Shown: positions 14,556-52,130, numbered from the stretch's first letter. The stretch: DNA of 64,000 bases from an uncultured Eubacteriales bacterium (GCA_964449165.1 CAYVAT010000001.1:79159-143158), one strand, 5' to 3'. Notes: a model not told the origin generated them from the sequence alone. Numbers and translations: made by a program.

Positions 14556-14588
14556 GTAGAAACAAACACAAGCTCAAGCAGATAATCA

Positions 14589-18052: not shown

Positions 18053-18059
18053 ATAGTCC

Positions 18060-19244: not shown

Positions 19245-20225
19245 TTAGGATTCAACCTTACATTGAAAGTCAAATCCAACCTCGGGGAAAGGGTCGACGA
19301 GAATGAGGGGAATTGTTTTGGGAGAATATTTCTCTGGCTTAATTTTCAAGCCAATCTTGTCAAACTGTTCCTGGGCTTTTTCTTCCTGGCCAAGGTGAAA
19401 ATAAGCTCTTCCTGAATTTTTAAGTGAATTTACTTCCTCAGGATTTTCTGCCAGAATTTCTTGCCAGATTTCAAGAGCTTTGTTGTAATTTCCCTGGTTA
19501 TAATAAACGATTGCTAAATTTTGTTTGGCCCAAATCATGGTTTCTGAAATCCGAGAAAAGCTTTCAATGGCTTGAGCATCTTCCTTCAGATAATAAACAA
19601 CATAGCCTTTCATGAAGCTCAATTCATCACTTTCTTTCTCACTCTTGAGGAGCTCCTCGAGCTCTTTTTTTGCCTTCTTGTATTCCTTAAGAAAGGAGTA
19701 GACCACGAGAAGCTGCTCTCTCGTCTTGATTTCTGGATACTTGTATTTTAAAGCCTCGCTAAATCTTTTACTGGCATTTTTATAATCTTTGTTCTTCTTA
19801 TAAAGCATTCCCAAAGCAAATTTCAGAACTCCTGTTCTTTCTTTGGTGAATACCACAGCCGAACTCCCGCTGAGGTAAGCATCTTCCTGGCCAAAGCTAT
19901 CCATCCTCTTTCCTGCCGATATAGTACTCTTTGCTTTTTCTAACCTTTCAGTTTCAAACTCGACTTTACTCAATGTCTTTAATGAATTTTGAAAATCACC
20001 CTTAAGATAATAGGCCAAACCTAGATAGAGATGGCAGTCGTAGTTGCGGGGATATCTTTTGAGTTTTCTGTTTAAAAGAAGAATGGCTTGATCGATTTTG
20101 CCCTGTTCCAGATACTTACAGGCCCTATTCTCTTCTAAGTACATCTGCTGAGCAGAGCTAAGCGGGATTTCAATCCAAAAAGCCAATAAAACCATTCCCA
20201 CCAATAGAATTAAAAGCTTTTTCAT
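19245..20225 (-). CDS. TPR repeat protein, secreted
   Basis: Signal peptide and repeated 34-aa TPR-like units (..YNQGNYNKALEIWQEIL..). Confidence 0.6.
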   Translation of the reverse strand: MKKLLILLVGMVLLAFWIEIPLSSAQQMYLEENRACKYLEQGKIDQAILLLNRKLKRYPRNYDCHLYLGLAYYLKGDFQNSLKTLSKVEFETERLEKAKSTISAGKRMDSFGQEDAYLSGSSAVVFTKERTGVLKFALGMLYKKNKDYKNASKRFSEALKYKYPEIKTREQLLVVYSFLKEYKKAKKELEELLKSEKESDELSFMKGYVVYYLKEDAQAIESFSRISETMIWAKQNLAIVYYNQGNYNKALEIWQEILAENPEEVNSLKNSGRAYFHLGQEEKAQEQFDKIGLKIKPEKYSPKTIPLILVDPFPEVGFDFQCKVES

Positions 20226-20477
20226 ATTTTCCCTCCTTTAAGGTTTAAGATCAGGCTTTTATTGTTTTTATTATACTAGCTCCAATCTAAATTGTGAAGG
20301 TAAAGCAGGCTTTTTTTGCATCTCCTCGGCTCCCATAAGGAGTGCGTGCTGGATAAGCTGCGGTGGGAGAGGCCTAACCCAACTTGCCCGACATTAAACT
20401 GGACTCATGTCAACCGTTTCAAAGAGAAAGCAAACCTTTAGACTCCCTAATTTTTACCGAACCAGAAATTGCTGTTT

Positions 20478-21143
20478 TTACTGGAACACTTTCTGGAAGA
20501 TATCAACAAGGTCGAGTGCGTATTCAACCTCGCTCAGAGGTATTCCCTTGTTTTCTGCTATGGTAGTGAAGCGTCCGTCCTGGTTGCCGTCTTTTGTGAT
20601 GATAAGATAGTCAGCATAAGGAGCCACTGCATCAATCATCCGCTCGTTGTCGCTTCCCGGAGCCCCTCTTTTTGAGGTGCCTCCGACATGCACACCGATG
20701 ATGAAGATTCCCTTCTCCTTGCAGTAGTCGATGATCTTTTTCAATCGGCTCACCTCCGCATCAACGGTCAGGCCTGATGCTCCCATGCCTTTCAGGCTGG
20801 CACCGATAGCGAAGATTACTGTCTTGTAAGGAGTGCCAGCGGGATAATTTTCGAGATCAGTATGGACTTCCACATGGAATCCGGGACCTGATTCTTTGCC
20901 AGCCAGGCCGACTCCAGCTTCTATCATATCAACGGTGGGAACGTCGCAATAATCATATGTTATACCTGCTTCATCCAGAACGATGTTAACGGTGGTCACA
21001 TCCGGACTCTGACCAGCAGAGGTGGTGAGGATGGGTTGCTGAGCTTTGGGTACTTCTGTTTCCGCCAAAATTGGAGCGGATAGAAAGATGAAAGTTACTA
21101 AACCAAGCACAAAATACAAACTCCATCCGGTTAAATTTTTCAT
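20478..21143 (-). CDS. Hypothetical secreted protein (last gene of a peptidase operon)
   Basis: Signal peptide and a good SD (AAGGGGGATG). Co-directional, 80 nt downstream of the C69 dipeptidase gene. No family recognised. Confidence 0.5.
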   Translation of the reverse strand: MKNLTGWSLYFVLGLVTFIFLSAPILAETEVPKAQQPILTTSAGQSPDVTTVNIVLDEAGITYDYCDVPTVDMIEAGVGLAGKESGPGFHVEVHTDLENYPAGTPYKTVIFAIGASLKGMGASGLTVDAEVSRLKKIIDYCKEKGIFIIGVHVGGTSKRGAPGSDNERMIDAVAPYADYLIITKDGNQDGRFTTIAENKGIPLSEVEYALDLVDIFQKVFQ

Positions 21144-25950: not shown

Positions 25951-26135
25951 CTAGTCAGGTAAGCTAATTCGTTAGTCTACGGATTTTCCCAAGCGATGAA
26001 AATCCGCTTATTCCTCGGAGCATCGGTTCCTATCCATCCTCGCCAAGACCCTCCCACCCACCACTATGGGCTTCGGATGGAAATGAACCATGCCTGCTTG
26101 CCTGCGGATGACTTGCTCCTAAGCTTACCTGACTG
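25951..26135. ncRNA. Candidate structured RNA (about 185 nt) closed by a 13-bp perfect terminal helix; class unknown (6S-like length)
   Basis: AGTCAGGTAAGCT at 25953-25965 pairs with AGCTTACCTGACT at 26122-26134. An internal 9-bp hairpin runs 25980-26006 (cGGATTTTC...GAAAATCCg). An imperfect long arm pairs 26021-26039 with 26075-26092. The region lies in a 450-bp divergent intergenic gap. Strand is undetermined. Confidence 0.2.
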
Positions 26136-35807: not shown

Positions 35808-38216
35808 TTAAAACTCGAATTCGACGCCTAAAACTGGCAAAAGCCCCCAACCTGAGACGCGGTCGGGCTTTGTGTCGATTGTGTTCCAGTAATAGGAAAA
35901 TACATTCTTTCTGTTATAGACATTCCACACACTGAAGTAGATGATCAGATTGGAGGAGCTGAAGTAGAATCTCTTGTCAAAGCGGAGGTTCAGTGAGTGG
36001 TAAGCCGGAAGCCTTTCGCCGTTGAGATGGGTTTCATCAAAAACTCCACTGTTTACAGCCTGAGAGGCAACGACATCAAAAGGTGTATAGGGAGCTCCTC
36101 CAGCATAAATCCACTTCAGACCGAATTCCCAGAATTTGTTGAGTTTATAGCCGCCTTCTGAGGAGAACACGAGTCTGTTATCATAGACCCTGTTTCTCCA
36201 GACGCCATCCAGCCCCTTGTAGCACGATCGGAAATAAGAGGCGCTGATTACTCCGTAAAGCTTGTTTGCCAGTTTTTTCTGGATCATGAATTCAATGCCA
36301 AGGGATCGGGCCTTGCCGCTATCCAGGAGGCTTTCATGATTTGTGAAATGGTTGCCGTAGAATATCTCATCAAAGATGAATAACGATGGCTGTGCAGGAT
36401 CAACGGGTAGCTGGTTGTATTCTTTGATATATGCTTCCACAGAAAATCTCGTATTATCCGTCAACAAGTGGCGCATGCCCAGGACAGCATGATAGGCTAC
36501 AGGATCCTTTAAACTCTTGTGGCCTTCATTCTGGAAAAGTAGGACGAGGGGCAGATGCTGATGAAAAATCCCTGCCGCCCCATCTATAGATGTTCTGCTT
36601 GAAATCTTCCAGGAGAAGGAGAATCGGGGGGAGAGGTGCCAATTCTGGTTAAAGGTAAAATAATCCCCACGAACTCCCAAATTAAGTGTCAGCTTCGAAA
36701 AAGGATTCCATGTGTGATTGATAAAAGCTGCATACTGGTCGGCGGATGTCCGGTAATCCCACCAGACAGCCGGGGCTGCGTTTCCCAGGACATCGGTAAA
36801 TTCTGCGAGAAAATAATCATAGTTGTTCGTGAGATGCTTGATTTCGATCCCCAAACTCAGCTTGTTGGCCTTGTTGAACCTGTGATAATTGATATTTCTC
36901 AGAGTGAATATCCTTTCCGAGTTCTTCCCCTCCCTTGCCAGTTCCTCTGAGACCGTGTGATAGGTTGTATCTTTGTAATTTATGTAACTCTGGGAAAGGG
37001 ATGTACTTGAATAGCCCTTAGCCCCCCACACAAAGAACCAGTTCACGCCGACAGTATATTCTGTTGAATCCTGGCCGCCGTAAAAACTTTCTTTGTCTTT
37101 GAGGGCATCTTCTTTTTCAGTCCCACTGTCGTCAACACCGCCGATGCCGATAAAGATCAACTTGTTTCTCCTAGAAAGCTCGATATTCAGTTTTCCCTGA
37201 AAGTCATTCCAACTCACAGGTACTCCCTGCCCCATGAGACCGATTAAAAGATCGATATAACTCCGTCTGACAGAGAACATCCATGAGCCTCTGTCTTTAG
37301 CCAGAGGCCCTTCGGCAACCAGACCCATACCCATCATGCTCAGTTCAAGCTGATAGTCCCGCTCATCACGATTTCCTTCTCTGAATGATATATCCATGAT
37401 AGAAGACATCCGGTCCCCATATATCGGAGAGAATCCTCCCGCATAAAAACGGACATCACGGATAAAATCCACATTCAGAAGCCCGATTGCTCCGGATGTG
37501 GATCCCAGGTTAGGATAATGGTTAATGTTTGGAACCTCGATGTTATCTATGTAAAAAGCATTCTCTGCCGGGTTACCTCCTCGGACCACCAGAGTATTCA
37601 CCATATCACTGCTGACCTTGGCGATGCTGGGAAGGCTGGTGAGAATACGGCTGACATCTCCGGCAGATCCCGCCGATCTTCGTATTTCTTCGTTGGAAAA
37701 AATGGATGTGCTCGAAGGCTGCTCTTCCTGCCTGGAGAAGTAACTGGCGGTTACGGTTACTTCCTCTTCCTGAATGACATTGTCCAGCCTGAGGAGAACC
37801 TGGACATTTACGGTTCTTCTTGATTTGACGATAACATCGGGTATGAGTCGTGTTATATAAAATCGAGAAGAGATTTCAAGGGTGTAGCTTCCAACGGGAA
37901 TATCTGTAACCGTGAAATTTCCAGCCGTATCCGTATAAATTTCGAACGGAGTGTCAACAACCTTAATCTTTGCTCCAGGTATCGGCGATTTGAGTTCTGC
38001 GTCAACAACGCATCCTTTTATTGTGCCTTTCTGCGATTGTGAATCAGTGTTTCCTTTTGTGTAGCCAAAACTTGAGGCAAGCAAGAGAGCGAGGATGAAG
38101 AATAAAGTTACCAGAGGAAATCTCAGCGCCTTCCTCGTTGATTTCTTTAAGTTTGTCTTACCCTGATTATAGCCCATAGTGAAGAATCTTATCCGAGTCT
38201 TGTTCATTCTGTACAT
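35808..38216 (-). CDS. TonB-dependent-receptor-like outer-membrane protein with carboxypeptidase-regulatory-like N-domain
   Basis: A signal/TM segment, then GTIKGCVVDAELKSPIPGAKIKVVDTP...GSYTLEIS (CarbopepD_reg-like), then a plug and barrel. The C-terminus GVEFEF ends in Phe. 802 aa; the exact start is uncertain (no SD). Confidence 0.65.
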   Translation of the reverse strand: MYRMNKTRIRFFTMGYNQGKTNLKKSTRKALRFPLVTLFFILALLLASSFGYTKGNTDSQSQKGTIKGCVVDAELKSPIPGAKIKVVDTPFEIYTDTAGNFTVTDIPVGSYTLEISSRFYITRLIPDVIVKSRRTVNVQVLLRLDNVIQEEEVTVTASYFSRQEEQPSSTSIFSNEEIRRSAGSAGDVSRILTSLPSIAKVSSDMVNTLVVRGGNPAENAFYIDNIEVPNINHYPNLGSTSGAIGLLNVDFIRDVRFYAGGFSPIYGDRMSSIMDISFREGNRDERDYQLELSMMGMGLVAEGPLAKDRGSWMFSVRRSYIDLLIGLMGQGVPVSWNDFQGKLNIELSRRNKLIFIGIGGVDDSGTEKEDALKDKESFYGGQDSTEYTVGVNWFFVWGAKGYSSTSLSQSYINYKDTTYHTVSEELAREGKNSERIFTLRNINYHRFNKANKLSLGIEIKHLTNNYDYFLAEFTDVLGNAAPAVWWDYRTSADQYAAFINHTWNPFSKLTLNLGVRGDYFTFNQNWHLSPRFSFSWKISSRTSIDGAAGIFHQHLPLVLLFQNEGHKSLKDPVAYHAVLGMRHLLTDNTRFSVEAYIKEYNQLPVDPAQPSLFIFDEIFYGNHFTNHESLLDSGKARSLGIEFMIQKKLANKLYGVISASYFRSCYKGLDGVWRNRVYDNRLVFSSEGGYKLNKFWEFGLKWIYAGGAPYTPFDVVASQAVNSGVFDETHLNGERLPAYHSLNLRFDKRFYFSSSNLIIYFSVWNVYNRKNVFSYYWNTIDTKPDRVSGWGLLPVLGVEFEF

Positions 38217-39177: not shown

Positions 39178-41055
39178 ATGTTCTCTTTTATCAGGATAAT
39201 GCCCAGAGAAGGGGATGCCGTTGTTTTGCTTTTAACTTTCTTATTTTTCTTAGGGACCGTGAGTTTTGGCCGCACTGAAAAACCTGTCCTTCATGGTCGA
39301 CACTGGATGGCCATCACCGGGAAGCCTCTCGGTGCAACTGCCGGAGCTATGATCTTCCAACAGGGAGGGAATGCTGTTGATGCAACCTGTGCCATGCTTG
39401 CTGCTGTCTGTACCATGTATGATGTCTTGAGTTGGGGCGGAGAGACCCAAGCTCTGGTCTATAATCCGAAGACAAAAAAGATCTACGGCATCAATGCTTT
39501 AGGCGTGGCTCCAACCGGAGCAACTCCAGAGTTTTTTAAGGAAAAGGGATTAAAGTATCCCCCAGGATATGGACCTTTGGCTGCAGTCACTCCTGGGACT
39601 CCAGGGGGATTGATGGTCATGTTGGCTGAGTTTGGGTCCATGAGCCTCAAGGAAATTCTGGAGCCTGCAATCCAGATGGCCAAGGGCTATCCCGTAGAAA
39701 AACAATTGGCAGATAGTATAGAAAGGGATAAAAAGAGGATAAAGGAATGGCCTTATTCAAAGAAAGTCTTGCTCCCTCATCTTGGTAAAGAGCGAGAGGC
39801 CCCTTATCCTGGAGAGATTTTTCGCCAGCCAGATCTGGTCAAGACGCTTGAGAAGCTGGTAGAAGCAGAACAGGAAGCGTTGGCAGAAGGCAAAAGCCGC
39901 AAAGAAGCTATCCATGCTGCCTATGATCGGTTCTACAGAGGAGATGTCGCCAAAGAATTTGTCCGAGGCTGCCAGGAACAGGGCGGGCTCATCACCATGG
40001 AAGATCTGGCTAATTGGAAGGTTTATATCGAAGAGCCGGTGATGACTACTTATAAAGACATCGAAGTCTATAAACTCACTTCATGGGTGCAGGGTCCTGT
40101 CCTCCTCCAGATGCTGAACATGCTGGAGAATTTTGACCTGCAATCCATGGGCTATAACACGGCCAAATATATCCATACCATCTACCAGGTGATGAACCTG
40201 GCTTTTGCCGACCGTGATTTCTATTACGGAGACCCCTATTTTCCACCCCAGGAGCCTATAGAAGGGCTGCTCTCCAAAGAATATGCCAAAGAGCGGATCA
40301 AGCTGATCAACTGGAAGCGGAATGATCCGGATGTCAAGCCTGGCAATCCTTATCCATTCCAAGGAGAGGAAAATCCTTTCCTCCATTTTTTAGAGAAATG
40401 GTCAACAGTGGGAGATATGGATCCCAAGGATTGGAGCGAAGAGCAAAGAGCTTCTTTCGAAGCAGATATTGAAGCGGGGACCACCTCCATTCAAGCTGCT
40501 GATGAAGAGGGGTGGGTTGTTTCCGTCACACCCAGCGGCGGATGGATCCCAGCCTGTATAGCTGGCAAAACTGGGATCGGGATGAGCCAGAGGATGCAGA
40601 GCTTTGTCCTGGATGAAGATGAAAACCCCTTCAATGTCGTCGCTCCGGGAAAAAGGCCCCGAGCCACTTTGACACCAAGCCTGGCTCTAAAGGACGGCAA
40701 GCCTTTTCTATCTTTTGCTGTTCAGGGCGGGGATACTCAAGACCAGAATCTTCTTCAGCTCTTCTTGAATGTAGTGGAGTTCGGGATGAATATCCAGGAG
40801 GCATGCGAAGCACCGAACTTGGTCAGTTACCAGATGAAGAGCTCTTTCGGTCAACATCTGGCTGAACCCGGGAGGCTCCGCCTCAACGAAAAGATTCCTC
40901 CGTGGGTCAGAGAAAAGCTTGGGGCCATGGGATACAAGCTGGATTACAGGAAATATACCTCAGGCCCTCTCAATGCCATTTATTTCGACTGGATACACGG
41001 CACTTTCTGGGGAGGTTCAAGCAACTACGGGGAAGATTACGGAATAGCTTGGTAG
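39178..41055 (+). CDS. ggt: Gamma-glutamyltransferase family protein, secreted
   Basis: A signal peptide and the autoprocessing-site context ...AGTTSIQAADEEGWVVSVTPSGGW. 625 aa. Confidence 0.8.
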   Translation: MFSFIRIMPREGDAVVLLLTFLFFLGTVSFGRTEKPVLHGRHWMAITGKPLGATAGAMIFQQGGNAVDATCAMLAAVCTMYDVLSWGGETQALVYNPKTKKIYGINALGVAPTGATPEFFKEKGLKYPPGYGPLAAVTPGTPGGLMVMLAEFGSMSLKEILEPAIQMAKGYPVEKQLADSIERDKKRIKEWPYSKKVLLPHLGKEREAPYPGEIFRQPDLVKTLEKLVEAEQEALAEGKSRKEAIHAAYDRFYRGDVAKEFVRGCQEQGGLITMEDLANWKVYIEEPVMTTYKDIEVYKLTSWVQGPVLLQMLNMLENFDLQSMGYNTAKYIHTIYQVMNLAFADRDFYYGDPYFPPQEPIEGLLSKEYAKERIKLINWKRNDPDVKPGNPYPFQGEENPFLHFLEKWSTVGDMDPKDWSEEQRASFEADIEAGTTSIQAADEEGWVVSVTPSGGWIPACIAGKTGIGMSQRMQSFVLDEDENPFNVVAPGKRPRATLTPSLALKDGKPFLSFAVQGGDTQDQNLLQLFLNVVEFGMNIQEACEAPNLVSYQMKSSFGQHLAEPGRLRLNEKIPPWVREKLGAMGYKLDYRKYTSGPLNAIYFDWIHGTFWGGSSNYGEDYGIAW

Positions 41056-41115
41056 TAAAATAAAGATCGCTAAAAGCCTTCTGGAAGCATCCTTAAGACC
41101 GTGAGGAGGAAAAAA

Positions 41116-42762
41116 ATGAGGAAAAGAAACTTTGTCTGTTTCATTTCTGTCTTTGTCTTATTAGCTGGTTTGCTTATTGCCGAATGCTGCAAGCCGAGCC
41201 CTCCATCCAAACTTCAGTTTGAGATTTCCTTTCCCTCTTCTATTCATTCAGAGGCCATCACAGGGCGCGTTTTTGTCATGATTGCAAAGAGCGGCGAGAG
41301 GGAGCCTCGTCTCCAGGTTGGCAACTGGTGGAGGAGCGAACCATTTTTTGCAAAGGATGTCCATCAGCTTAATCCCGGAGAAGTTATCCTTATCGATGAG
41401 GATGTTCTGGGATATCCTCCAAAGAGCTTAAAAGACATACCAGCGGGAGATTACTACGTCCAGGGTTTGATAAATGTCTACACTCGATTTCATCGCTCCG
41501 ATGGCCATGTGATTTGGGCTCATATGGACCAATGGGAAGGGCAGAGATTTAACCGGTCCCCTGGCAACCTGTACAGTGAAGTTGAATCCGTCCATCTCGA
41601 CTCAGCCAAGGGATACAGGGTAAAACTGACGCTGGATAAAGTAATCCCTCCCATTGAAGCTCCGCAGGATACCGAATGGGTCAAATATATCAAAATCCAG
41701 AGCAAAATTCTGTCCGAGTTTTGGGGTCATCCCATCTATCTCGGAGCCATAGTCCTCCTTCCCAAAGGATATGACGCTCATCCAGATGTGTATTATCCCG
41801 TGCATTACAGACAAGGACATTTCTCGCTTCGCCCTCCTTATGGATTCAAGGAAAACACCGGTTTCTACAAAGTCTGGACATCAGAAAGCTTTCCCAGGAT
41901 GATCTGTGCTACTTTCCAGCATCCCTGCCCGTATTTCGATGATTCCTATGCGGTCAATTCCTCCAACTGCGGGCCTTATGGAGATGCCATCATGACGGAA
42001 CTCATCCCTTACATCGAAGAACATTTTAGAATTATCCGCAAATCCTACGCCCGAGTGCTTTCCGGCGGGTCCACAGGAGGATGGGAAGCGCTGGCCCTGC
42101 AGATCTTTCACCCTGATTTTTTCGGAGGAGCATGGAGCTTTTTTCCTGATCCTATAGATTTTCGATATTACATGCTGACAAACATCTATGAGGATAAGTG
42201 CGCTTTCTACAAAGAGTATGGATGGCAGAGAGCAGAACGTCCCATGATGAGAGATGTTCACGGCCAGGTCTTAGTCACCTTGAGACATCTCAGCCAGATG
42301 GAGGCTGTTCTTGGCTCCGAAGGACGATCTGGCCAGCAGCTGGACATATGGCAGGCTGTTTACGGGCCTGTCGGCAAAGATGGTTATCCAGAGCCTCTGT
42401 GGGATAAGTTGACAGGGAAGATAGATCACCAGGTGGCTCAATACTTTAAGGAACACTATGATCTCCGCTATTATTTGGAGAAGAACTGGTCTTGGCTGGG
42501 GCCGAAGCTTGTGGGGAAATTGCATGTTTCTTGTGGAGATATGGATAATTTTTATTTGAACGAAGCCGTGTATGAGATGGAAAAATTCCTGAAAAGCACA
42601 AAAAATCCCTACTACGCCGGCTCCTTCCATTACGGACGCCCGAGAAAAGGCCACGGCTGGACTCCCTACGGCCGGAACACAGGCGAACTGGAGAGAGTCA
42701 TGGCCGATCACATCACCAAGAAAACTCCCGAAGAAGAGGATGCAGATCGATGGAAATATTGA
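41116..42762 (+). CDS. Putative esterase (PF00756-like alpha/beta hydrolase) with N-terminal secreted domain
   Basis: ARVLSGGSTGGWEALALQIFHPDFFGGAWSFFPD matches the esterase-family pattern G.S.GG..AL....P..F....SF.P. The ATG at 41116 is preceded by GAGGAGGA. The track start at 41101 is 5 codons upstream. Confidence 0.5.
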   Translation: MRKRNFVCFISVFVLLAGLLIAECCKPSPPSKLQFEISFPSSIHSEAITGRVFVMIAKSGEREPRLQVGNWWRSEPFFAKDVHQLNPGEVILIDEDVLGYPPKSLKDIPAGDYYVQGLINVYTRFHRSDGHVIWAHMDQWEGQRFNRSPGNLYSEVESVHLDSAKGYRVKLTLDKVIPPIEAPQDTEWVKYIKIQSKILSEFWGHPIYLGAIVLLPKGYDAHPDVYYPVHYRQGHFSLRPPYGFKENTGFYKVWTSESFPRMICATFQHPCPYFDDSYAVNSSNCGPYGDAIMTELIPYIEEHFRIIRKSYARVLSGGSTGGWEALALQIFHPDFFGGAWSFFPDPIDFRYYMLTNIYEDKCAFYKEYGWQRAERPMMRDVHGQVLVTLRHLSQMEAVLGSEGRSGQQLDIWQAVYGPVGKDGYPEPLWDKLTGKIDHQVAQYFKEHYDLRYYLEKNWSWLGPKLVGKLHVSCGDMDNFYLNEAVYEMEKFLKSTKNPYYAGSFHYGRPRKGHGWTPYGRNTGELERVMADHITKKTPEEEDADRWKY

Positions 42763-43030
42763 AGAAGCCGGTCTGTTTCTGATTTGAATTCATTTTTGTT
42801 CCCATCATGGGGGACTTTTTCTCGACTAAACATTTAGAGGAAGGACACTGGATATCAGTTTTGTTTTGAGCATTGGAATATTTGTGATTTCGTTGTTTTT
42901 CTTCGCCCACATCTTGAGACTTGAATGGATGAACCGGAGATGATGCCTTCCCTCAAAATAAGGGTAATTTCTTAGGGAAGGAAACAGAGAACTCCAACAA
43001 AAAACATCTTTATTGGAGGACTGAGAGTCC

Positions 43031-43858
43031 ATGGACAGCAGAGGAGCCAGGATCGTTGCTGTTGCTAATCATAAGGGCGGAGTGGGGAAAACAACAACCA
43101 TAGTCAACTTGAGTGCAGCCTTGGCTAAACTGGGTAAAAAGGTGCTGCTCATAGACATCGATCCCGGTGCTCACGCTACCTATAGTCTGGGTGTCCTCGC
43201 TCATAAGAGGAATAAAACAGTCTATCATCTTCTCAAAGGGCAGGTGTCTTTGATGGAGGTCTTGGTAGAGATCGTTTTAGATAAGGAAAGCCTGGATCTT
43301 GTCCCTTCCTCTTTGAGTCTGGCTGAAGCTGAGGTGGAGCTGTCTGGCTTACCTGGGCGTGAATTCCTGTTGAGGGAAGCTTTGAGCTATGAGCTGCCCT
43401 ATGATTTTGTTTTTATCGACTGTCCTCCATCCTTAGGGTTATTGACTCTCAATGCCCTGACCACTGCCTCAGATGTGATTATCCCTTTACAAACAGAGTA
43501 TCTAGCCCTTCAGGGCCTGAGCAAACTTCTGGAGACAGTTGAGGTCGTCAAGGCCCGTTTAAACTCCAAATTGAGGATCTCTGGAGTTATCGGGACCAGG
43601 TTCGATAAGCGCAAAATCCTGAACCGGGAGGTGGTGGAGAAGATTAAGGGATATTTTAAGGACAAAGTCTTTGAGGTACTGATAAGAGAAAATATTTCCC
43701 TGGCAGAGAGCCCTTCCTATGGGCTCACCATTTTTGAGTATTTCCCCAATTCACACGGGGCTCAGGACTACATGGCTCTTGCTAGAGAAATTCTGGAGAG
43801 GGAGAGAGGTGAGCGAGATGAAGAGATTGGGACCTCAGGATCCCTTAAGCTGGATTAA
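43031..43858 (+). CDS. ParA/MinD-family P-loop ATPase (orphan; no ParB nearby)
   Basis: Deviant Walker A VANHKGGVGKTTT. 275 aa. Confidence 0.85.
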   Translation: MDSRGARIVAVANHKGGVGKTTTIVNLSAALAKLGKKVLLIDIDPGAHATYSLGVLAHKRNKTVYHLLKGQVSLMEVLVEIVLDKESLDLVPSSLSLAEAEVELSGLPGREFLLREALSYELPYDFVFIDCPPSLGLLTLNALTTASDVIIPLQTEYLALQGLSKLLETVEVVKARLNSKLRISGVIGTRFDKRKILNREVVEKIKGYFKDKVFEVLIRENISLAESPSYGLTIFEYFPNSHGAQDYMALAREILERERGERDEEIGTSGSLKLD

Positions 43859-44105
43859 GGATACAAGCGAGAAATCAACAAATAGCGGAGAAAAAACGCA
43901 AGAACTTCAAGGAATCAGGAGGGGGTCGCCTGGGGAGAAGAGAACGTTCAGGATTCAAAGTGAAGGGGAAACTCCCGTGGAAGTGACGGTGATCATCAAA
44001 GGAGAAGGAGAAGACCGAACCATCTGTGTCAAGGTGGCTGAACAGGGCAGACAGAAAACGAAGGTAGAGGTCAATACTTCAGACAAGCTGAAGGAAGAGG
44101 AATAG
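43818..44105 (+). CDS. Small highly charged protein (95 aa), overlaps the 3' end of parA by 41 nt
   Basis: The ATG at 43818 is preceded by GGAGAGAGGTGAG. It is K/E/R/G-rich (MKRLGPQDPLSWIKDTSEKSTNSGEK...). The track ORF at 43719 is an upstream extension. Confidence 0.35.
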   Translation: MKRLGPQDPLSWIKDTSEKSTNSGEKTQELQGIRRGSPGEKRTFRIQSEGETPVEVTVIIKGEGEDRTICVKVAEQGRQKTKVEVNTSDKLKEEE

Positions 44106-44106
44106 A

Positions 44107-44153
44107 TTACTTCTGGAAGAGAATCTTCCCACCCACGATGGTGTAGAGAACTT
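44107..44153. repeat. Direct repeat copy 1 (47 nt, 46/47 identical to 48604-48650)
   Basis: TTACTTCTGGaAGAGAATCTTCCCACCCACGATGGTGTAGAGAACTTC versus copy 2 TTACTTCTGGtAGAGAATC... One mismatch. Confidence 0.85.
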
Positions 44154-44172
44154 CCTCCTTCAGCTGATCCCT
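44107..44172 (-). pseudogene. Dead C-terminal stub of an amidohydrolase paralog (RDQLKEEVLYTIVGGKILFQK*)
   Basis: Minus-strand translation matches the last residues of the 48604-50328 amidohydrolase (..EAEVLYTIVGGKILYQK*). In-frame TAA TAA lies immediately upstream, so only 21 codons remain. Confidence 0.5.
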
Positions 44173-44515
44173 TTATTAATTTTCGTTTGCTTGGCTTCAT
44201 TGTTTGCTCAAAAAATGGAATCCATCCCCATTGTCTGGACAGGAAAATGTCTTCTTTAAGGAGATATTTGTACTCGAGTCGAATGCTGCTGGATCCCATA
44301 AGCGCTAATTCCGTTGTATCAAATTTTATGTTATATGTATGAGCTCCGTGCAGTAAATAAATTTGTTCTTTCCAATTCATCTCTCCAAAATATAGTGAAT
44401 ATGTAGACTGTTCCCGATTTTATTTACCCCCAAATTTTCGGGAATTGAGATTTCATTCTCGTTGTTTTAGAATAAATTCACTAAAATCAGAAGTAATTTA
44501 AAAGGAGAAGAAAAC

Positions 44516-45556
44516 ATGAAAACATTTTGCCGCTGTTTGGTGATCATTCTGTCTTTGAGCTTATTAATCTCTGCAAATAACCTTGAAGGCTATTCTGCTT
44601 CCATAAAGGCAAAGTATGGAGATGAGGATACATCCATCAACAGACTAAAAGATGAGATTGCCCGATACGAGAAAATAACAGAGGGATCTGTAGGAGTGGC
44701 CTCTATCCATCTGGAGTCAGGAAGATCTTTTTTTTACAACAGAGATATCCGTTATCCCATGGCAAGCACTTACAAGATTCCGATTGCTGTAAAGCTTTTA
44801 TCCCTCGTTGAAAAAGGAGAGATAAAGTTATCAGACATGGTAGAAGTTCAAAAGAGTGACCTCCATCCCGGGAGCGGGACTATAGCCCGGCTGCTGGACG
44901 ATCCAGGAGTTGTCCTGTCCGTCCAGAATCTTTTAGAGCTGATGCTGCTGATAAGTGATAACAGCGCGACAGATCTTTGTTTAAAAATTGTGGGCGGGTC
45001 TGAATCAGTCACTCAAAAAATGCGTGAAATAGGGATTATGGATATAGATGTCAACCGTCCCACATATGTTGCTATCGCCAATTACTTAGGAGTTACATCC
45101 GTTAAAGAAGGCGAACCCTACTCAGATGAAGAGGCTCTCAAAGAACTAGGGAAGCTGTCAAAGGAACAACGCGAACAAGCCGCTCAGGCTTTCAGCAAAG
45201 ATAAGAAGGACACAGCCACTCCTGCTGCCATGGCGCAGTTGCTGAAAATGATCTGGAATAAGGAAATCCTCAGTAAAGAAAATTCAGAGTACCTTCTTGA
45301 TATCATGAAGCGCTGTCAGACAGGTAAAGCCAGGATTAAAGGTATTCTTCCTCCTAATACCATCGTCCACCACAAAACTGGAACCATAGGAAGCACAACC
45401 AATGACGTAGGGATCATTGAGCTTCCTGGAGATGCAGGAAATCTGATAGCGGTCATCTTCACAAAGGAAGCCAAAATTGACAATGAAAAAAGTGAGGAGG
45501 TCATCGCTCAGATTGCCAGAACATTATACGATTACTTCCTCTTTACCACTGAATAA
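44516..45556 (+). CDS. Class A beta-lactamase-fold protein (penicillin-binding-protein-like serine hydrolase), secreted; omega loop atypical
   Basis: Signal peptide; STYK (SxxK), SDN, KTG and DTATPAAMAQ (compare TEM DTTMPAAMA) are present. The ExxLN omega-loop Glu is not evident (DVNRPTYVA), and a ~40-aa insertion is present. 346 aa. Confidence 0.7.
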   Translation: MKTFCRCLVIILSLSLLISANNLEGYSASIKAKYGDEDTSINRLKDEIARYEKITEGSVGVASIHLESGRSFFYNRDIRYPMASTYKIPIAVKLLSLVEKGEIKLSDMVEVQKSDLHPGSGTIARLLDDPGVVLSVQNLLELMLLISDNSATDLCLKIVGGSESVTQKMREIGIMDIDVNRPTYVAIANYLGVTSVKEGEPYSDEEALKELGKLSKEQREQAAQAFSKDKKDTATPAAMAQLLKMIWNKEILSKENSEYLLDIMKRCQTGKARIKGILPPNTIVHHKTGTIGSTTNDVGIIELPGDAGNLIAVIFTKEAKIDNEKSEEVIAQIARTLYDYFLFTTE

Positions 45557-45762
45557 AGGAGAAACTGGGCGATTTTCTAGATTGAGGCATCACGAGTTTT
45601 CATGAATTATCGTTAATGGCCCGAAAAACTTTTCCTTCTGAAATAAGGCTATTTTCTCCTTTTTGATGCGTTTCAGTATGTGGAGGCTTCGCTGTGACAA
45701 AAGTCAGCTTGAAGTGGGCCTCTGTGGCTGTTTTCTAGGGCAGGACTATAAACTGTTAAAAT

Positions 45763-48129
45763 CTATTCATAGCGGATGGAATCCACTGGATCAGCAAGGG
45801 AAACCTTCACGGTTTGATAACTAACTGCGATCAAAGAAATAGTCAGGACAAGCAAACCAGACAGAAGAAATGTGCTCCATCTGAGGCTTACTCGGTAGGG
45901 AAAATTTAGCAGCCAGTTGCTCATGATCCACCAGGATATCGGCCAGACACATATGTTTGCCAGCAAGACAAGTTTTACAAGATCCCTGCAAAGCAGATAG
46001 AGAAGCGCCCCTCTTGAAGAGCCCAGGATTTTGCGGATTCCGATTTCTTTAGTTCGTCTTTCAGTTGAGAATGATGTCAACCCAAACAGTCCAAGACAGG
46101 CTATGAACACAGCCAGTATTGTAAAATACTTAAGAATACTACCCAAAGTCTCCAAATCCACGTATGATTTGTCTAATTCTTTATCGAGAAAGTCATATTT
46201 AAATGGTAAATCAGGAGCGACTTTTTCCCAGGCTTTTTCCAAAGATACGAGCGAGGTTGAAATACTTCCCGGACGGATACGGACAAAAATATAATTTACC
46301 ACAGGATTTTGAAAAAGGATTAGAGGACCTATCAAGGCATCTGCTACTGATTCAATGTGAAAATCTTTCATTACGCCTATAATTGTGCCCTCGTATGTCT
46401 CTCCGATGGAAAGAGTTTGATTTAACGCTGAATCCACTCCCATAAGCTTTTCAAACATCTCATTAACAATCAAATTTCCCCTTTCGTCTGCGAAATCTTT
46501 CGAAAAACTTCTTCCTTTCAGCATTTTTATCTTCAACGTCTCAATAAAATCATAATCAACAGAAGTAATGTTTATAGGAGTGCTTTCGTCCAATCTTTTT
46601 CCCTTGAAAACCACATTATCGGTCGGTGAGGCAAACCACGTGGGATGATTAAAAGATGCGGTGACCATTTCCACACTGGGATCGCGTTTTAATTCATTTT
46701 TCAACCTTTGGTAGATCTGTCTGTTATTGACATTCGCAATTCCAAGCGGGATCGAGATTACATTTTTTTTATCAAAACCCAGATCTTTATTTTTAAGAAA
46801 ATCAACCTGGTTATAAATAATGCCGGAAATGATGATCAATATGAGTGAAATGCTGATTTGAATAAAAACCAGGATTTTTCTCAATAGAGAACCCTTAAAG
46901 CCTGATTTCATTGTCCCCCGTAGTGTTTTCACAGGCTGAAATGAAGAGAGAAAGAGTGCTGGATAACTTCCCGACAGGAGACCCGTAAACAAAGTTATAA
47001 CGGTCACAAAAAGGATGATCCTTCCGTTTCCAAAACCGGATAGAGTGAAGGTTTCTCCGGTTATTTTATTGAATCCAGGAAGAAAAAGCTCTAAAAGGAC
47101 GGGAATAAAAACAAGTGCTATAAAAGCCAAAAAAACAGCTTCGACGAGGAATTGAGAAATTAGATGTCTTCTTCCGGCGCCAATGACTTTTCGCACGCCG
47201 ATCTCTTTTGACCGGTATTCCGCGCGGGCTGTTGTTAGATTCATGAAGTTGATACACGCCATTGCCAAGATGAGAACTGCCACTAAGGAAAAAACATAAA
47301 CATACTGAATTCTTCCCCGCCCTTCCGGATTGGCAAAATTTGAAAACAGATGGATTTTCGTTAAAGGCTGTAAAAACAATTCTATATTAGTGTCTTTATC
47401 ATAGGTCTTGATGATACCAGTAATTTTCTTCTCGAAGTCTCGGAAATCTGTATTTTCTTTCAAACGTATGTATGTTGATGCCATACTGAAATCCCAGGTC
47501 TTTGTCTTCCATCCCAATTTTTCAACGATTTCGAAAGGAACGGCCATGTCAAACTGTAGATGGGAATTGGACGGTATATTCTTAATAACTCCGGTTACAG
47601 TAAAATCGAACCTGTTATCCAGTGTTAGTATTTTCCCAACTGGGTCTTTATTTCCGAAATACTTATCGGCGGTCTTTTCTGTTATGACTATCGAATTGAG
47701 ATTGTTGAGCGCAGTATTTTTATCACCTTTGAGAAAAGGGAAGGTAAACATACTGAAAAAAGCCGGATCCACGGTTATTATTAGGTCTTCATAATATTTC
47801 TTCTCCTTATAGCTTATTACCCTTTCACCAGTCCAGGCATGTCTTGTAGTTTCCTTGATCTCAGGGAAATTTTCTTTAAGCGTAGGCGATAATAGCCCGG
47901 GCGTATAGAAACCATATCTAACGTCATCAGGAATATTGCGTTTTTCAATTACCCTATAAATTGAGGAAGCATTTTTATGAAACCTATCAAAACTCAACTC
48001 ATGCACCACCCAGACCGATATGAGAATAAATGCGGTGATGCCGAGTGCAAGCCCCGAGATGTTAATAAAAGAATAGACTATTTGTCTTCTGAGATTTCTT
48101 ATTGCAATCATTAAGTAGTTTTTAAACAT
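45763..48129 (-). CDS. ABC transporter permease, FtsX/MacB-like with two FtsX domains (no adjacent ATPase gene)
   Basis: 788 aa with two 4-TM FtsX-type modules and large extracytoplasmic loops. SD AAGGGGAG. Confidence 0.8.
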   Translation of the reverse strand: MFKNYLMIAIRNLRRQIVYSFINISGLALGITAFILISVWVVHELSFDRFHKNASSIYRVIEKRNIPDDVRYGFYTPGLLSPTLKENFPEIKETTRHAWTGERVISYKEKKYYEDLIITVDPAFFSMFTFPFLKGDKNTALNNLNSIVITEKTADKYFGNKDPVGKILTLDNRFDFTVTGVIKNIPSNSHLQFDMAVPFEIVEKLGWKTKTWDFSMASTYIRLKENTDFRDFEKKITGIIKTYDKDTNIELFLQPLTKIHLFSNFANPEGRGRIQYVYVFSLVAVLILAMACINFMNLTTARAEYRSKEIGVRKVIGAGRRHLISQFLVEAVFLAFIALVFIPVLLELFLPGFNKITGETFTLSGFGNGRIILFVTVITLFTGLLSGSYPALFLSSFQPVKTLRGTMKSGFKGSLLRKILVFIQISISLILIIISGIIYNQVDFLKNKDLGFDKKNVISIPLGIANVNNRQIYQRLKNELKRDPSVEMVTASFNHPTWFASPTDNVVFKGKRLDESTPINITSVDYDFIETLKIKMLKGRSFSKDFADERGNLIVNEMFEKLMGVDSALNQTLSIGETYEGTIIGVMKDFHIESVADALIGPLILFQNPVVNYIFVRIRPGSISTSLVSLEKAWEKVAPDLPFKYDFLDKELDKSYVDLETLGSILKYFTILAVFIACLGLFGLTSFSTERRTKEIGIRKILGSSRGALLYLLCRDLVKLVLLANICVWPISWWIMSNWLLNFPYRVSLRWSTFLLSGLLVLTISLIAVSYQTVKVSLADPVDSIRYE

Positions 48130-48603
48130 CGCTCCCCTTCAGATAATAGACATTTACCCTTCAAATCTTTCATTTTATGCAATAATTATGCCATTTAGAC
48201 TTGCTGAAGAATCCATATGAATATTTAAAAAACAGTGTCCGATAATAAACCATATGATGCACGGAATCGGACGATTTTGCAGCTCTCATGTTCTTTGGAG
48301 TTCTGATCATTTCCCCGACCATCGGACTGATGACCGTGCTCCACTAGGCCATCTGAGCCGCCTCGGCTAATCGTTTGGATTCCCTATGATATGACTAGGG
48401 AATGGGGATTGATCCCAATCATTCATACCGGAGCGAGGACACAGGATTAGCTGCAGCAGCGCGGACAGTCTGGGAGGATGTTGAAAACGAGGAAATCTAT
48501 TAAGTAATATATCCACGGAGCTTCAGCTTTGAACCAGGGCACAATAAAAATATCCCCCCGAAGCCTTGGCGGCTGTCAAAAAATAGGCCAGATCGCAAAA
48601 AGG

Positions 48604-48650
48604 TTACTTCTGGTAGAGAATCTTCCCACCCACGATGGTGTAGAGAACTT
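48604..48650. repeat. Direct repeat copy 2 (47 nt), identical to the 3' end of the amidohydrolase CDS
   Basis: See copy 1. It covers the stop codon and the last 15 codons of the amidohydrolase (minus strand). Confidence 0.85.
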
Positions 48651-50328
48651 CAGCCTCCAGAATCTCATCCTCGGGTACGGTCATGATATCCTTGGATAGG
48701 ACAGTGATGTCAGCCAGCTTGCCAGGTGTTAAGGAGCCGAGGATATCCTCCTGGAAAGCTGCATAAGCTCCGTTTATGGTGTAAGAGCGCAGGGCTTCTT
48801 CCCGGCTCATACGCTGATCAGGATAGAAAACGGTTCCGTCCTTCATCTTCCGCGTCACCGTTGCGTAGAAGCAAGGGATAGGATTAACGTCCTCGACGGG
48901 AGCGTCTGTTCCATTGCAGATAACAGCTCCGGTTTTCATCAGCTTCTGCCACACATAGGCTCCTTCTTCGGCTCTCTTTTCTCCCAGTCTTTTGATAACC
49001 CAGGGTCCATCAGAAGTGCAGTGGATTCCCTGCATAGAAGGGATCACACCCAACTGGCTAAAACGGGGAATATCATCGGGATGGAGATGTTGGGAGTGCT
49101 CGATTCGCCAGCGCAGGTCTTTTTTATCAGGGTGAGCTTTGAACGCTTCTTCGATGATGTTGAGCACCTCTCTATTTCCCCGATCTCCGATGGCATGGAC
49201 ACAAAGTTGAAAATCGTTCTCGATGGCGATTCTGGCGGTTTCTTTGATCACCTCAACGGGAGTGGTGTTTAAGCCGACGCTGGCGGGTAGATCTGTGTAA
49301 GGCTCCAGAAACCAGGCTCCGTGGGCACCCAAGGCGCCATCTATGAGCCGTTTAATCGAACGGACAGTTAAGTGATTATTTCCCAACCCCATAATTCTGT
49401 ATTCGGAGAGGCGATTTTTCAATTGTTCGTTGCTTTCCCGAATCATCACATAGAGCCGGATTCCCAGTTTGCCCTCTTCGGCAAATTCTTTGAAAAGATC
49501 GATGGTTTCAAATGAGGAACTGGCGTCATGAAGAGTAGTGATTCCTTTGGAAAGGCATTCTTGTGCAGCCAGCTCAACCACTTTTCTTTTCTCGGCATCA
49601 ATCTGCTCAGGAGTGCGCTTTTCCTGGTATTGACTTAGGGCCTTGTTCACCAGGTCTTGCGCGGCCTCACGAAACACACCGATGGGATTGCCTTCAGGAT
49701 CTCTGACGATTTCACCTCCGGGAGGATCGGGAGTTTCTTTAGTTACTCCTGCCAGCTCCATGGCTTTGGCGTTGGCAAAGGAAGAGTGGCCGCTGGCATG
49801 GTTCAGCAGAACTGGATTATCAGGAGAAACCTGGCTCAGAGAATGATGATATGGCAGGCTGTCCACATTGGGCTCAGGGATTTTATCCCATTTTTCTTGA
49901 TGCCAGCCCCTGCCCAATATCCACTCTCCCGGCTGAGCTTTTTCTGCAGCCTCTTTAACCATGGCCACTATTCCATCCCAGTTTCTGACATGCATCAGGT
50001 CCAATCTCAGCTTGGCTTGCCCGACACTTGTGAAATGGGCATGGGAATCGATGAATCCAGGGATAACCAGCTTCCCTCCTATGTCAATCACCTTGGTTGT
50101 CTTGGAAATATAGGGATCGATATCTTTGTTACTCCCCACGGCTGCGATGGTATCACCTCGAACAGCTAAGGCTTCTGCCTCTGGCTTTGTTTCATCTACG
50201 GTCACTATTTTGCCATTTATCAAAACGAGGTCTGCTGGTTCTTTCTTCTGTGCACAACTGAAGAAAAGGTTGATAACTGTCATACACAGAACAAAAAGGA
50301 TAAGCTTGGGTATGAATTTTTTAGACAT
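48604..50328 (-). CDS. Amidohydrolase-family metal-dependent hydrolase, lipoprotein
   Basis: A lipobox-like FFSCAQ after the signal peptide. The HxH metal site (FIDSHAHF), a downstream His/Asp pattern and a C-terminal ...VLYTIVGGKILYQK fit the amidohydrolase_3 architecture. 574 aa. A strong AAGGAGG ribosome-binding site is present. Confidence 0.8.
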   Translation of the reverse strand: MSKKFIPKLILFVLCMTVINLFFSCAQKKEPADLVLINGKIVTVDETKPEAEALAVRGDTIAAVGSNKDIDPYISKTTKVIDIGGKLVIPGFIDSHAHFTSVGQAKLRLDLMHVRNWDGIVAMVKEAAEKAQPGEWILGRGWHQEKWDKIPEPNVDSLPYHHSLSQVSPDNPVLLNHASGHSSFANAKAMELAGVTKETPDPPGGEIVRDPEGNPIGVFREAAQDLVNKALSQYQEKRTPEQIDAEKRKVVELAAQECLSKGITTLHDASSSFETIDLFKEFAEEGKLGIRLYVMIRESNEQLKNRLSEYRIMGLGNNHLTVRSIKRLIDGALGAHGAWFLEPYTDLPASVGLNTTPVEVIKETARIAIENDFQLCVHAIGDRGNREVLNIIEEAFKAHPDKKDLRWRIEHSQHLHPDDIPRFSQLGVIPSMQGIHCTSDGPWVIKRLGEKRAEEGAYVWQKLMKTGAVICNGTDAPVEDVNPIPCFYATVTRKMKDGTVFYPDQRMSREEALRSYTINGAYAAFQEDILGSLTPGKLADITVLSKDIMTVPEDEILEAEVLYTIVGGKILYQK

Positions 50329-50462: not shown

Positions 50463-52130
50463 CTATCTTTTCTGCTCGCTTTTCTTGTGGAAATCTTGTT
50501 TTTGACAGAGGATCCATCCATCGGGATCGATTGTGACTTCCAAAGGTTTCTCTGCAAAAGGAAATTCGAAGGTGTTATATTCTTCCTTTATCCAGACCCT
50601 TTTCCTCACTGTGCCAGAAGGAAGTTTTACCTGAACTTCTATGGGCATTTCATAAAGAGGAAAATCTGCCTGAATTTGGCTGATAACAATTTTTACCTTT
50701 CTTTGACCGGATGCATATCCCCATCCAAACTGATAGATGGGAAAGCCGGCTTGATAAATCCATTGATCGAAAAACCATCCCAGGTCTGCACCGTACACCT
50801 GTTCGCACACAGCGCGGAAATCCTCTGTCGTGGCATTGGAGTAGGCATAGTCTTCAGCGTATTTTCTTAAGATTTTCCAAAAGTTTTCTTCCCCAACCAC
50901 GAACCTCAACATATGGAGAACCCAGGCGGCTTTTTCGTATTCGATAACGCAGAAGAGATGCTCAGGCGGCGGATCGAAGATGGGATGCTCCGCACCTCGA
51001 TGACGATTGAAATAGGTATCCTTGAATTCCTTCATCCTCGATTTGAGTCCTTCAAAGCCATGGAGATGCTCGTGCCAGAGGGCATCCGAATAGGTGGCAA
51101 AACCTTCATTCAGCCAGATATCCGCCCAATCGGCTGGAGTGACCAAGTCTCCCCACCATTGATGGGCCAATTCGTGAGCAATGATCCAATCATAGCGGTG
51201 ATCTCCGGTAACTAGCGTCGAGGAGTAAGAAGTGCAGGTCTGATGCTCCATGGATGCACCTCCCGGAATTGTAGCCATTCCGTATTTCTCATCCAAGAAA
51301 GGATATTCGCCGAAGGCTTCCGAGAAAAATTCGATCATGGGGACTGTTACCGAGAAATCTTCCAGCGCCTGGGAAAGATGTTCTGGGTAGGCAAAGTAAA
51401 GAACATCCATGGCTTGTGTGTCTGAAGAATAAGAATCAGAAAACGATTCATAGTTGGTAGCTGCCACTGAAATCAGATAAGTGGCGATGGGATAATTCTC
51501 TTTCCAGTAATAAGTCACGGTTCCATCGGTGTTTTCAGTGATGTCCATAAGATTTCCGTTTGAAGCGACCGTCATCCAACCCGGGACCGTGATCCTCATT
51601 TCGACTGTAGCTTTATCTGAAGGAAGATCAAAGCAGGGGAACCACTGGCGGGCTTCGATTGGTTCATCCAGACTCCAGATGATGGGTTGATCCTGATGAT
51701 AGGAGAAATTAAGCCCGGATTGAGGATAGCCTTGATAGCTTACCATGATCTCGAACTGCTCATCTAGCTGATACTGTCGATCCAGGAAGATATCAAGCTG
51801 CTCATCCTGATGCACAAAACTCAGTGAATTTCCGTTTTGATTGATCTGAGTCACCATCATGTTATCCGCCAGATGAAGAGTGATTTCTACGAGATTATCC
51901 ATGAGGCTTTGTGCCAGGATTATGGCTTTTCCTTGCATACTTTGGGAGTCAAAGTCAATTTTCCACTCGAATTGATAGTGGATGATATCGAAGACGTGTT
52001 CTGGAGCCTGAGCGAGAAGTTCCCGGAAGTCATACTTCAAGCCTTGCTTATGAAAAGAAATCTCTTGGGTAAAAAGTGAATTGAGAAAAAGGATAAGGAG
52101 GGCAATAACGAGAGCTGTAATTCTTTTCAT
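50463..52130 (-). CDS. M1 family aminopeptidase (aminopeptidase N-like), secreted
   Basis: HELAHQWWGD (HExxH) and NEGFATY (a conserved Glu ligand roughly 18 residues downstream), plus a signal peptide. 555 aa. Confidence 0.85.
   Translation of the reverse strand: MKRITALVIALLILFLNSLFTQEISFHKQGLKYDFRELLAQAPEHVFDIIHYQFEWKIDFDSQSMQGKAIILAQSLMDNLVEITLHLADNMMVTQINQNGNSLSFVHQDEQLDIFLDRQYQLDEQFEIMVSYQGYPQSGLNFSYHQDQPIIWSLDEPIEARQWFPCFDLPSDKATVEMRITVPGWMTVASNGNLMDITENTDGTVTYYWKENYPIATYLISVAATNYESFSDSYSSDTQAMDVLYFAYPEHLSQALEDFSVTVPMIEFFSEAFGEYPFLDEKYGMATIPGGASMEHQTCTSYSSTLVTGDHRYDWIIAHELAHQWWGDLVTPADWADIWLNEGFATYSDALWHEHLHGFEGLKSRMKEFKDTYFNRHRGAEHPIFDPPPEHLFCVIEYEKAAWVLHMLRFVVGEENFWKILRKYAEDYAYSNATTEDFRAVCEQVYGADLGWFFDQWIYQAGFPIYQFGWGYASGQRKVKIVISQIQADFPLYEMPIEVQVKLPSGTVRKRVWIKEEYNTFEFPFAEKPLEVTIDPDGWILCQKQDFHKKSEQKR

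Follow-up and report, generated by a model that had tools for sequence, protein, structure and literature searches.

A strain-variable islet bounded by a duplicated amidohydrolase gene end in Aminicenantes metagenomic DNA

The window analysed here is a stretch of 64,000 nucleotides from a contig titled as an uncultured Eubacteriales bacterium (GCA_964449165.1, CAYVAT010000001.1:79159-143158). The feature under study lies between positions 44,107 and 48,650, where a gene for a class A beta-lactamase (bla) and a gene for a duplicated MacB/FtsX-type permease separate an amidohydrolase gene from a small open reading frame (ORF) and a parA gene (Table 1). The two genes are bracketed by near-identical direct repeats, one of which is the genuine 3' end of the amidohydrolase gene and the other a dead copy of it. 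Comparison with related metagenomic loci, which are referred to by number (L001 and onwards), indicates that the arrangement probably goes back to an old insertion, in which foreign DNA entered between the convergent ends of the amidohydrolase gene and the small ORF, and that the inserted DNA has since become a strain-variable, decaying islet. The orthologues of the amidohydrolase (74-95% identical) come from metagenome bins of Candidatus Aminicenantes (Acidobacteriota), of which it is a conserved core gene. Many bins with clear Aminicenantes orthologues and synteny carry the same title, 'uncultured Eubacteriales bacterium' (e.g. CAYSCW010000012.1), and these titles look mislabelled.

The repeat, TTACTTCTGGAAGAGAATCTTCCCACCCACGATGGTGTAGAGAACTTC, occupies positions 44107-44154 and recurs in the same orientation at 48604-48651, with 47 of the 48 positions identical. 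The sole mismatch is an A at 44117 that corresponds to a T at 48614, and the longest exact run is 37 nt. Ungapped extension of the homology gives 57/63 identical positions (90%), and the extended homology covers ~66 nt. A search of the window with up to 3 mismatches returns 2 matches, against 0 in 100 shuffles. Copy 2 is the functional one, the 574-aa Amidohydro_3 gene terminating in …PEDEILEAEVLYTIVGGKILYQK and its stop codon. Copy 1 translates as two stops, RDQLKEEVLYTIVGGKILFQK and a further stop, the first two being an in-frame TAATAA at 44173-44178. Within this stub, 44107-44154 is the 47/48 match to copy 2 and 44155-44172 is a diverged continuation with a one-codon deletion. Differences are concentrated at the inner edge of the stub, with 4 in 15 nt against 1 in the last 48 nt (window, Fisher p = 0.01). 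The first-pass annotation of this DNA had reported a 46/47 direct repeat in one orientation that was too similar to be chance, with copy 2 as the true end of the amidohydrolase gene on the minus strand (last 15 codons and stop), copy 1 as a dead stub directly preceded by an in-frame TAATAA, and a decay of similarity just inside copy 1. All of this holds, the repeat being one base longer than stated. Short-word BLAST gives no third copy of the repeat at the boundary between permease and bla. Among ~180 related loci no extra stub copies are found, and two copies per locus occur only in the window and in L006. A 141-aa ORF (43955-44380, minus strand) crosses the stub and the insertion junction and partly covers the small ORF, which is encoded on the other strand; it matches no family and is almost certainly not a gene.

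Several relatives have an empty site, at which the repeated sequence occurs once. In L009-L012 (amidohydrolase 91% identical; L009 is GCA_964429795.1) a single nucleotide separates the amidohydrolase stop from the convergent small ORF, beyond which lies parA, and positions 11669-11726 of L009 align both to window 48660-48603 and to window 44163-44106. The stop-to-stop gap is also 1 nt in L178 (amidohydrolase 87% identical), and is 143 nt in L177 (83%) and 106 nt in L022 (76%). The parA gene is syntenic in L005-L012, L022, L177 and L178. In the window 1 nt separates the stop of the small ORF from that of the stub, the same geometry as at the empty sites, and the stub occupies exactly the position of the real gene end in relatives without an interruption. 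The single copy and the tail-to-tail genes of the empty sites therefore show that DNA was inserted at the convergent junction. This agrees with the insertion at the 3' end of the amidohydrolase gene proposed in the first-pass annotation, since the relatives have an empty site with the parA locus directly after the amidohydrolase. The same annotation had set against it a pair of full-length amidohydrolase paralogues, and no syntenic locus contains them.

The duplication left by the insertion is reciprocal. On the gene side, in L006, L005 and L176, the intact amidohydrolase gene is followed by CCTAT(T/C)(C/G)CTCTTCTTTTAGCCTG, 23 nt that remain from the small-ORF 3' end, and the cargo comes next. 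On the parA side the stub holds ~66 nt of the amidohydrolase end, and the small ORF next to it is intact. A junction fragment of ~90 nt, made up of ~66 nt from the 3' end of the amidohydrolase gene, the 1-nt spacer and ~23 nt from that of the small ORF, is present twice, with each copy cut short on the side that faces the cargo. In the window itself the tract just past the amidohydrolase stop may hold a degenerate remnant of the small-ORF 3' end.

Table 1. Features of the islet and its flanks, in window coordinates
Feature	Position	Strand	Remarks
Gamma-glutamyltranspeptidase	39178-41055	+	Left flank
Esterase-like gene	41101-42762	+	Left flank
ParA-type ATPase gene (parA)	43031..43858	+	Pfam AAA_31/CbiA; left flank of the variable spot
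Small ORF, 95 aa	43818..44105	+	Overlaps the end of parA; no family match
Repeat copy 1, dead amidohydrolase 3' stub	44107..44172	-	Same stub in L006
AT-rich spacer between stub and bla unit	44173..44461	.	In window and L006
Class A beta-lactamase (bla) unit	44462..45556	+	346-aa gene (44516-45556) and 54 nt upstream
3'-end remnant of a DUF234-family gene	45614..45679	-	22 codons (ILKRIKKEKIALFQKEKFFGP…); aligns with the 142-aa DUF234 ORF of L176
Permease module	45680..48527	-	788-aa duplicated MacB_PCD/FtsX (ADOP-like) gene (45763-48129) with untranslated 5' and 3' flanks
Tract just past the amidohydrolase stop, 76 nt	48528..48603	-	Common to L094 and L095
Repeat copy 2	48604..48651	-	Functional last 15 codons and stop of the amidohydrolase (…EVLYTIVGGKILYQK, stop)
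Amidohydrolase, 574 aa, YtcJ-like; target gene	48604..50328	-	Amidohydro_3, Pfam PF07969, E=1.3e-108
M1 peptidase, then two TldD/PmbA genes			Right flank, after the amidohydrolase

A collapsed or chimeric join at a short repeat would be one explanation for such a pattern, and the k-mer contigs of Logan do break inside the repeat (L003 and L004). A k-mer graph is expected to break at a 37-nt repeat, and these two contigs bear flanks specific to copy 1, keeping its characteristic bases on both sides. The exact repeat is also only 37 nt, below the typical read length. Both junctions, for which support across the joins had been called for in the first-pass annotation, are present in independent assemblies. 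Exact-protein look-up returned L001 and L002, from two Joint Genome Institute (JGI) samples, in which the M1 peptidase, amidohydrolase and permease genes follow one another at 99.5-99.9% identity, L001 running on into bla. In L006, a JGI contig from another strain and sample, bla, stub, small ORF and parA are contiguous. The gene-side junction is thus backed by the separate assemblies of L001 and L002, with part of it in L095, and the stub-side junction by that of L006. The same kind of look-up with the small ORF gave one contig only, which ends in the repeat. An assembly chimera is very unlikely on these observations, and an artefact of this kind has next to no probability as the source of the locus.

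The content of the site differs between strains, and at least six configurations are observed at the same position in relatives whose amidohydrolase is 76-95% identical. Apart from the empty state (L009-L012, L178, L177 and L022), the site holds bla only in L006, bla with a 142-aa DUF234 fragment in L176, and bla with the permease in the window, L001 and L002. In L005, L007 and L008 bla is accompanied by a 211-aa protein and a TonB-dependent receptor. This 3.3-kb receptor module replaces window 44115-44410, which is most of the spacer and the stub, and only AGAAGTAA remains of the latter. In L094 and L095 bla is joined to the esterase gene, and the stub, small ORF, parA and permease are absent. 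Some of these variants share samples, since 3300056889 contains both L001 and L006, and 3300057013 contains L002 and L007. The first-pass annotation had treated the 4.45 kb as one acquired segment, a view that has to be given up because the bla and permease parts vary independently, L006 having stub and bla without the permease. A metagenome scan with the amidohydrolase was uninformative on close strains, as all of the matches listed were 78% identical or less.

The breakpoints of the modules fall at window positions 44114, 44411, 45614, 45668, 45680 and 48527, and two of the joins can be read at the level of single nucleotides. L006 corresponds to an L176-like state from which the DUF234 tract is missing, with AGCC(A)TG at the join. 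L095 corresponds to the window with 48527..45668 missing, and (T/A)TCAAA is found on both sides. These two junctions directly show microhomology-mediated deletion. The DUF234 remnant that separates the permease gene from bla is left over from cargo that the site carried earlier, and the window keeps 12 nt more of it than L095 (9 of the 12 match L176). This difference suggests that a deletion removed the permease from L095, and not that an insertion into an L095-like state gave rise to the window. The TonB-dependent receptor of L005 was considered as a copy of a receptor encoded elsewhere in the window (35808-38216) and rejected, as the two are unrelated. In L095 (4919-4921, compared with window 42771-44463) bla directly abuts the esterase 3' end, and the absence of parA, small ORF and stub means that parA and the small ORF are dispensable too. 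Instability is also seen on the far side of the amidohydrolase gene in some lineages, since most of the M1 peptidase gene (window 50463-52130) is deleted in L094 and L095 (ENA DRR027590/1), where 51987..50577 is missing, and the gene is truncated in L178, where window 51936..50991 is missing.

The interior of the islet differs in composition from its surroundings. No part of the window deviates more in composition than the permease module (tetranucleotide z-score 3.85, GC z-score -2.5), and the GC content at third codon positions (GC3) is 0.40 for the permease and 0.44 for bla, compared with ~0.52 for the flanking genes. The comparison of composition with the flanks that the first-pass annotation had recommended thus gives a real lowering of GC. 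The nearest homologue of the permease outside the strain of the window is 65% identical and is also from Aminicenantes. Homologues of bla occur elsewhere, with 83% identity in L179, next to MazE/PRiA4-type genes, and 76-77% in L180-L183, among housekeeping genes; DNA similarity to the bla loci of L179 and L180 is limited to 44462/44440-45556. From the composition of the permease, the 65% identity of its nearest homologue and the homologues of bla in unrelated loci, the cargo looks foreign.

Genes for mobility were not encountered. Pfam scans of most of the larger window ORFs, and Pfam, NCBIfam and PHROGs scans of the ORFs of the islet area (window, L005 and L176), contain no integrase or transposase, as the first-pass annotation had also noted. 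The hallmarks of a transposon or insertion sequence are similarly missing, with no transposase, only weak inverted repeats (71-77%) near the ends, and a duplication of 48-90 nt. A 26-nt core of the repeat has no match in viral contigs, and a distant BLAST of the 4.45 kb against plasmid and phage collections gave no match. There is no tRNA gene and no credible Rfam match in the window, and terminator-like sites occur at chance level. Neither the small ORF nor the 211-aa cargo protein has a match in PHROGs or Pfam.

The beta-lactamase-fold gene noted in the first-pass annotation is a class A beta-lactamase by sequence, with predicted activity. It scores 208.8 bits with NCBIfam NF033103, above the cut-off of 200, and the nearest sub-model is subclass A2. 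The protein has a signal peptide and the catalytic motifs S-x-x-K (ASTYK), SDN and HKTG, and its best matches among solved structures are class A beta-lactamases. It differs from these in an inserted or divergent stretch of ~40 residues at the omega loop, where ~181-218 fall outside both aligned stretches. The permease contains two MacB_PCD and FtsX stretches in a single polypeptide (Pfam), and an ABC_tran domain is absent from every scanned ORF between 31.3 and 62.6 kb of the window. Its best NCBIfam model is ADOP (TIGR03434) with 301.7 bits, below the family cut-off of 622.3, and by this match the protein is a relative of ADOP rather than a certified member. The name stands for acidobacterial duplicated orphan permeases, a family mentioned in PMC3914696. 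The window permease resembles the family in its two MacB_PCD and FtsX halves, in the lack of a nearby ABC ATPase gene and in its acidobacterial (Aminicenantes) host. ADOP proteins are by definition unpartnered with an adjacent ATPase, and the orphan state is therefore to be expected in this phylum. It had been called unusual for a MacB/FtsX permease in the first-pass annotation, but it is typical of the family that the protein matches best. In L032, L033, L035, L038, L045 and L054, where the amidohydrolase is 69-74% identical, 1-2 ADOP-like permease paralogues adjoin the orthologue. These paralogues lie directly upstream of the amidohydrolase gene on the opposite strand and are 34-47% identical to the window permease. 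The recurrence of this neighbourhood in distant Aminicenantes might reflect a functional link.

Comparison of alleles places the stub early in the history of the site. Over its last 48 nt the stub of the window does not differ from that of L006 (0/48), and it has 1 difference from the gene end of the window, 3 from that of L095 and ~6 each from those of L006, L009 and L176. The stub of L006 matches the gene end of L006 itself at 42 of the 48 positions. As the last 48 nt are identical in both lineages, the stub had formed before the lineages of the window and L006 diverged. That the repeat copies in the window are nearly identical accordingly does not point to a recent event; judged from these alleles it is retention of the source allele. 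Gene conversion was considered as a cause of the 47/48 identity and is not needed, since the stub is shared with L006 and the values fit normal variation between lineages. The inner 15 nt of the stub behave differently, with 3-4 differences from every gene allele in addition to the codon deletion, and with 3/15 differences between the stubs of the window and L006. Either the edge of another allele, introduced with the incoming DNA, or damage at the junction accounts for this patch.

Sequence identity across the islet and its flanks is mosaic. Between the window and L006 it reaches 97-100% from 44715 to 41123, changes at a break inside bla and is 91-94% over the 3' half of that gene, and on the amidohydrolase side, compared with L005 (which has the same amidohydrolase allele as L006), it is mostly 92-96%. 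This mosaic, seen in a handful of metagenomic contigs, suggests homologous exchange in the flanks.

Taken together, the probable explanation is an old insertion of foreign DNA at the tail-to-tail junction, followed by decay of the islet along different routes in different strains. The insertion would have occurred in the ancestor of a species group of Aminicenantes, duplicating ~90 nt of the junction. The gene-side copy would have kept the amidohydrolase intact together with the cut remnant of the small ORF, and the parA-side copy would have kept the small ORF intact together with the stub. Most likely, circular DNA that carried a copy of the ~90-nt junction entered through a single crossover in the conserved GAAGTTCTCTACACCATCGTGGGTGG tract, using a recombinase that may be encoded elsewhere or may since have been lost. 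A single crossover is favoured because one ~90-nt fragment would give both truncated ends and would also explain why the allele changes at the stub's inner edge. Cargo, namely bla, the DUF234-family gene, the ADOP-like permease and the TonB-dependent receptor, would then have been added, truncated and deleted through microhomology-mediated events, and homologous recombination in the core genes on either side may have passed the cargo between co-occurring strains.

Several points weigh against this explanation. No recombinase gene, no circular form and no second site with the same cassette was found, the core is absent from viral contigs, and the islet DNA is unmatched in the plasmid and phage collections. 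The fall in identity that marks the inner end of the stub might reflect damage to the junction or local decay instead of a crossover point, and the two stubs differ from each other there at 3 of 15 positions. A staggered break with fill-in gives an identical geometry. Precise deletion between the two repeat copies could in principle have produced the empty state of the sister lineages, which would then not be ancestral, although the stub would still need an earlier empty state. Finally, the order of events in the lineages is drawn from few contigs, without a formal phylogeny.

The geometry of two truncated, reciprocal copies would also be produced by illegitimate recombination or repair, in which staggered nicks ~90 nt apart are filled in, or the replication template is switched, the target is copied as the insertion takes place, and the incoming DNA has no att-like homology; the later history of the islet would be as described above. 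Such an origin is unlikely. No recombinase was found, the later rearrangements of the islet used microhomologies of 5-7 nt, so that repair of this type does occur here, and over its last 48 nt the stub is in essence the allele of the window. Against this, duplications of ~90 nt far exceed the known products of transposition or end joining. The distribution of differences in the stub, with 3-4 and a codon deletion in the inner 15 nt and 0-1 in the next 48 nt, is also easier to explain if the inner part came from a different allele. A further reading is a tandem duplication of the amidohydrolase gene with one paralogue mostly deleted and the intervening genes native. The stub is oriented like the gene and its similarity decays inward, in line with this, but among the syntenic loci there is no second amidohydrolase at the site, and the cargo is compositionally foreign with homologues in other loci. 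Simple gene duplication does not produce the reciprocal 23-nt remnant of the small ORF beside the intact gene, and the stub lies exactly 1 nt from the small-ORF stop, like the real gene at empty sites. This makes a tandem origin highly improbable.

The junction may alternatively be a reusable attachment site, with the conserved 26-37-nt tract as the core for a recombinase encoded elsewhere in Aminicenantes genomes, although this is improbable. In its full form, the idea is that integrase-less cassettes, cis-mobilisable or integron-like, are moved by such an enzyme and that each cargo represents a separate site-specific insertion. Several independent changes do have one end within ~10 nt of the stop-stop junction, the receptor module ending at 44114 and the permease-bearing tract starting just past the stop at 48603-48598, and in L006 an identical 26-nt core lies between diverged arms. 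However, in all lineages no other coding stretch of the gene is as conserved as the 26-nt core, and its identity therefore needs no special explanation. The other ends of the events are scattered (44411, 45614, 45668 and 45680) and show plain microhomology. There are no further repeat copies at the cargo boundaries and no stub-like sequence at the boundary of permease and bla, and neither a nearby recombinase nor a match to a viral contig is found. A working cassette system of this kind is consequently very doubtful; if true, it would be a cis-mobilisable cassette system in an uncultured phylum.

The insertion and decay proposed here have two known counterparts. Prophage e14 inserts in icd of E. 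coli and leaves the icdC pseudogene fragment (PMC13626634). Both sites have an intact gene at one end and a short dead copy of its C-terminal coding sequence, in the same orientation, at the other; the copies are similar but not identical, and relatives without the insert have a single copy. The islet differs from e14 in having no integrase, excisionase or phage gene, and in its small size (1.5-5 kb across strains). Its content is not a fixed unit, as the modules vary independently, and its duplication includes ~23 nt of the convergent neighbouring gene. The second counterpart is found in horizontal-transfer hotspots without identifiable genes of mobile elements, whose content is replaced by homologous recombination in the core genes on either side (Oliveira, Touchon and Rocha 2017, PMC5635113). 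Likewise, one pair of core genes here borders different accessory genes in close strains, and even in the same samples, no integrase or transposase is present, and the identity of the flanks is mosaic, a comparison that rests on a handful of metagenomic contigs. In contrast to these hotspots, the founding insertion of the islet left a target duplication, which the double-crossover model does not itself yield. The islet is hence decaying and strain-variable, is bounded by a duplication of its target gene, and resembles e14 without a recombinase.

This is an ordinary kind of genome variation, a further instance of something already known, and it reveals no new mechanism. Its interest is that the formation and decay of an islet can be traced in the uncultured phylum Aminicenantes from metagenomic contigs alone, with the founding duplication, the empty sites of sister lineages and at least six cargo states, some from the same sample, all visible. 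The position of a class A beta-lactamase gene of an environmental anaerobe in exchangeable DNA has some relevance to surveys of environmental resistance genes.

Further features of the window lie outside the islet. A second beta-lactamase-fold gene (9720-10934, minus strand) encodes a 404-aa protein of the serine hydrolase/class C type (PF00144) and has a normal GC3 of 0.57. The 788-aa ORFs at 45763-48129 and 4669-7035 were compared as possible paralogues, which was rejected as they are unrelated. A second block of low GC and atypical tetranucleotide composition extends from 14500 to 21000 (GC 0.39-0.41, z-score up to 3.1) and contains sulfatase-TPR, GWxTD-domain and TPR genes. An intergenic sequence of ~50 nt with inverted ends (TCCATCC…GGATGGA) at 26033-26081 is also found, in either orientation, in the spacer between the M1 peptidase and amidohydrolase genes of L176 (4419-4468) and L009-L014, the window's own spacer not containing it; it may be a small dispersed repeat element.

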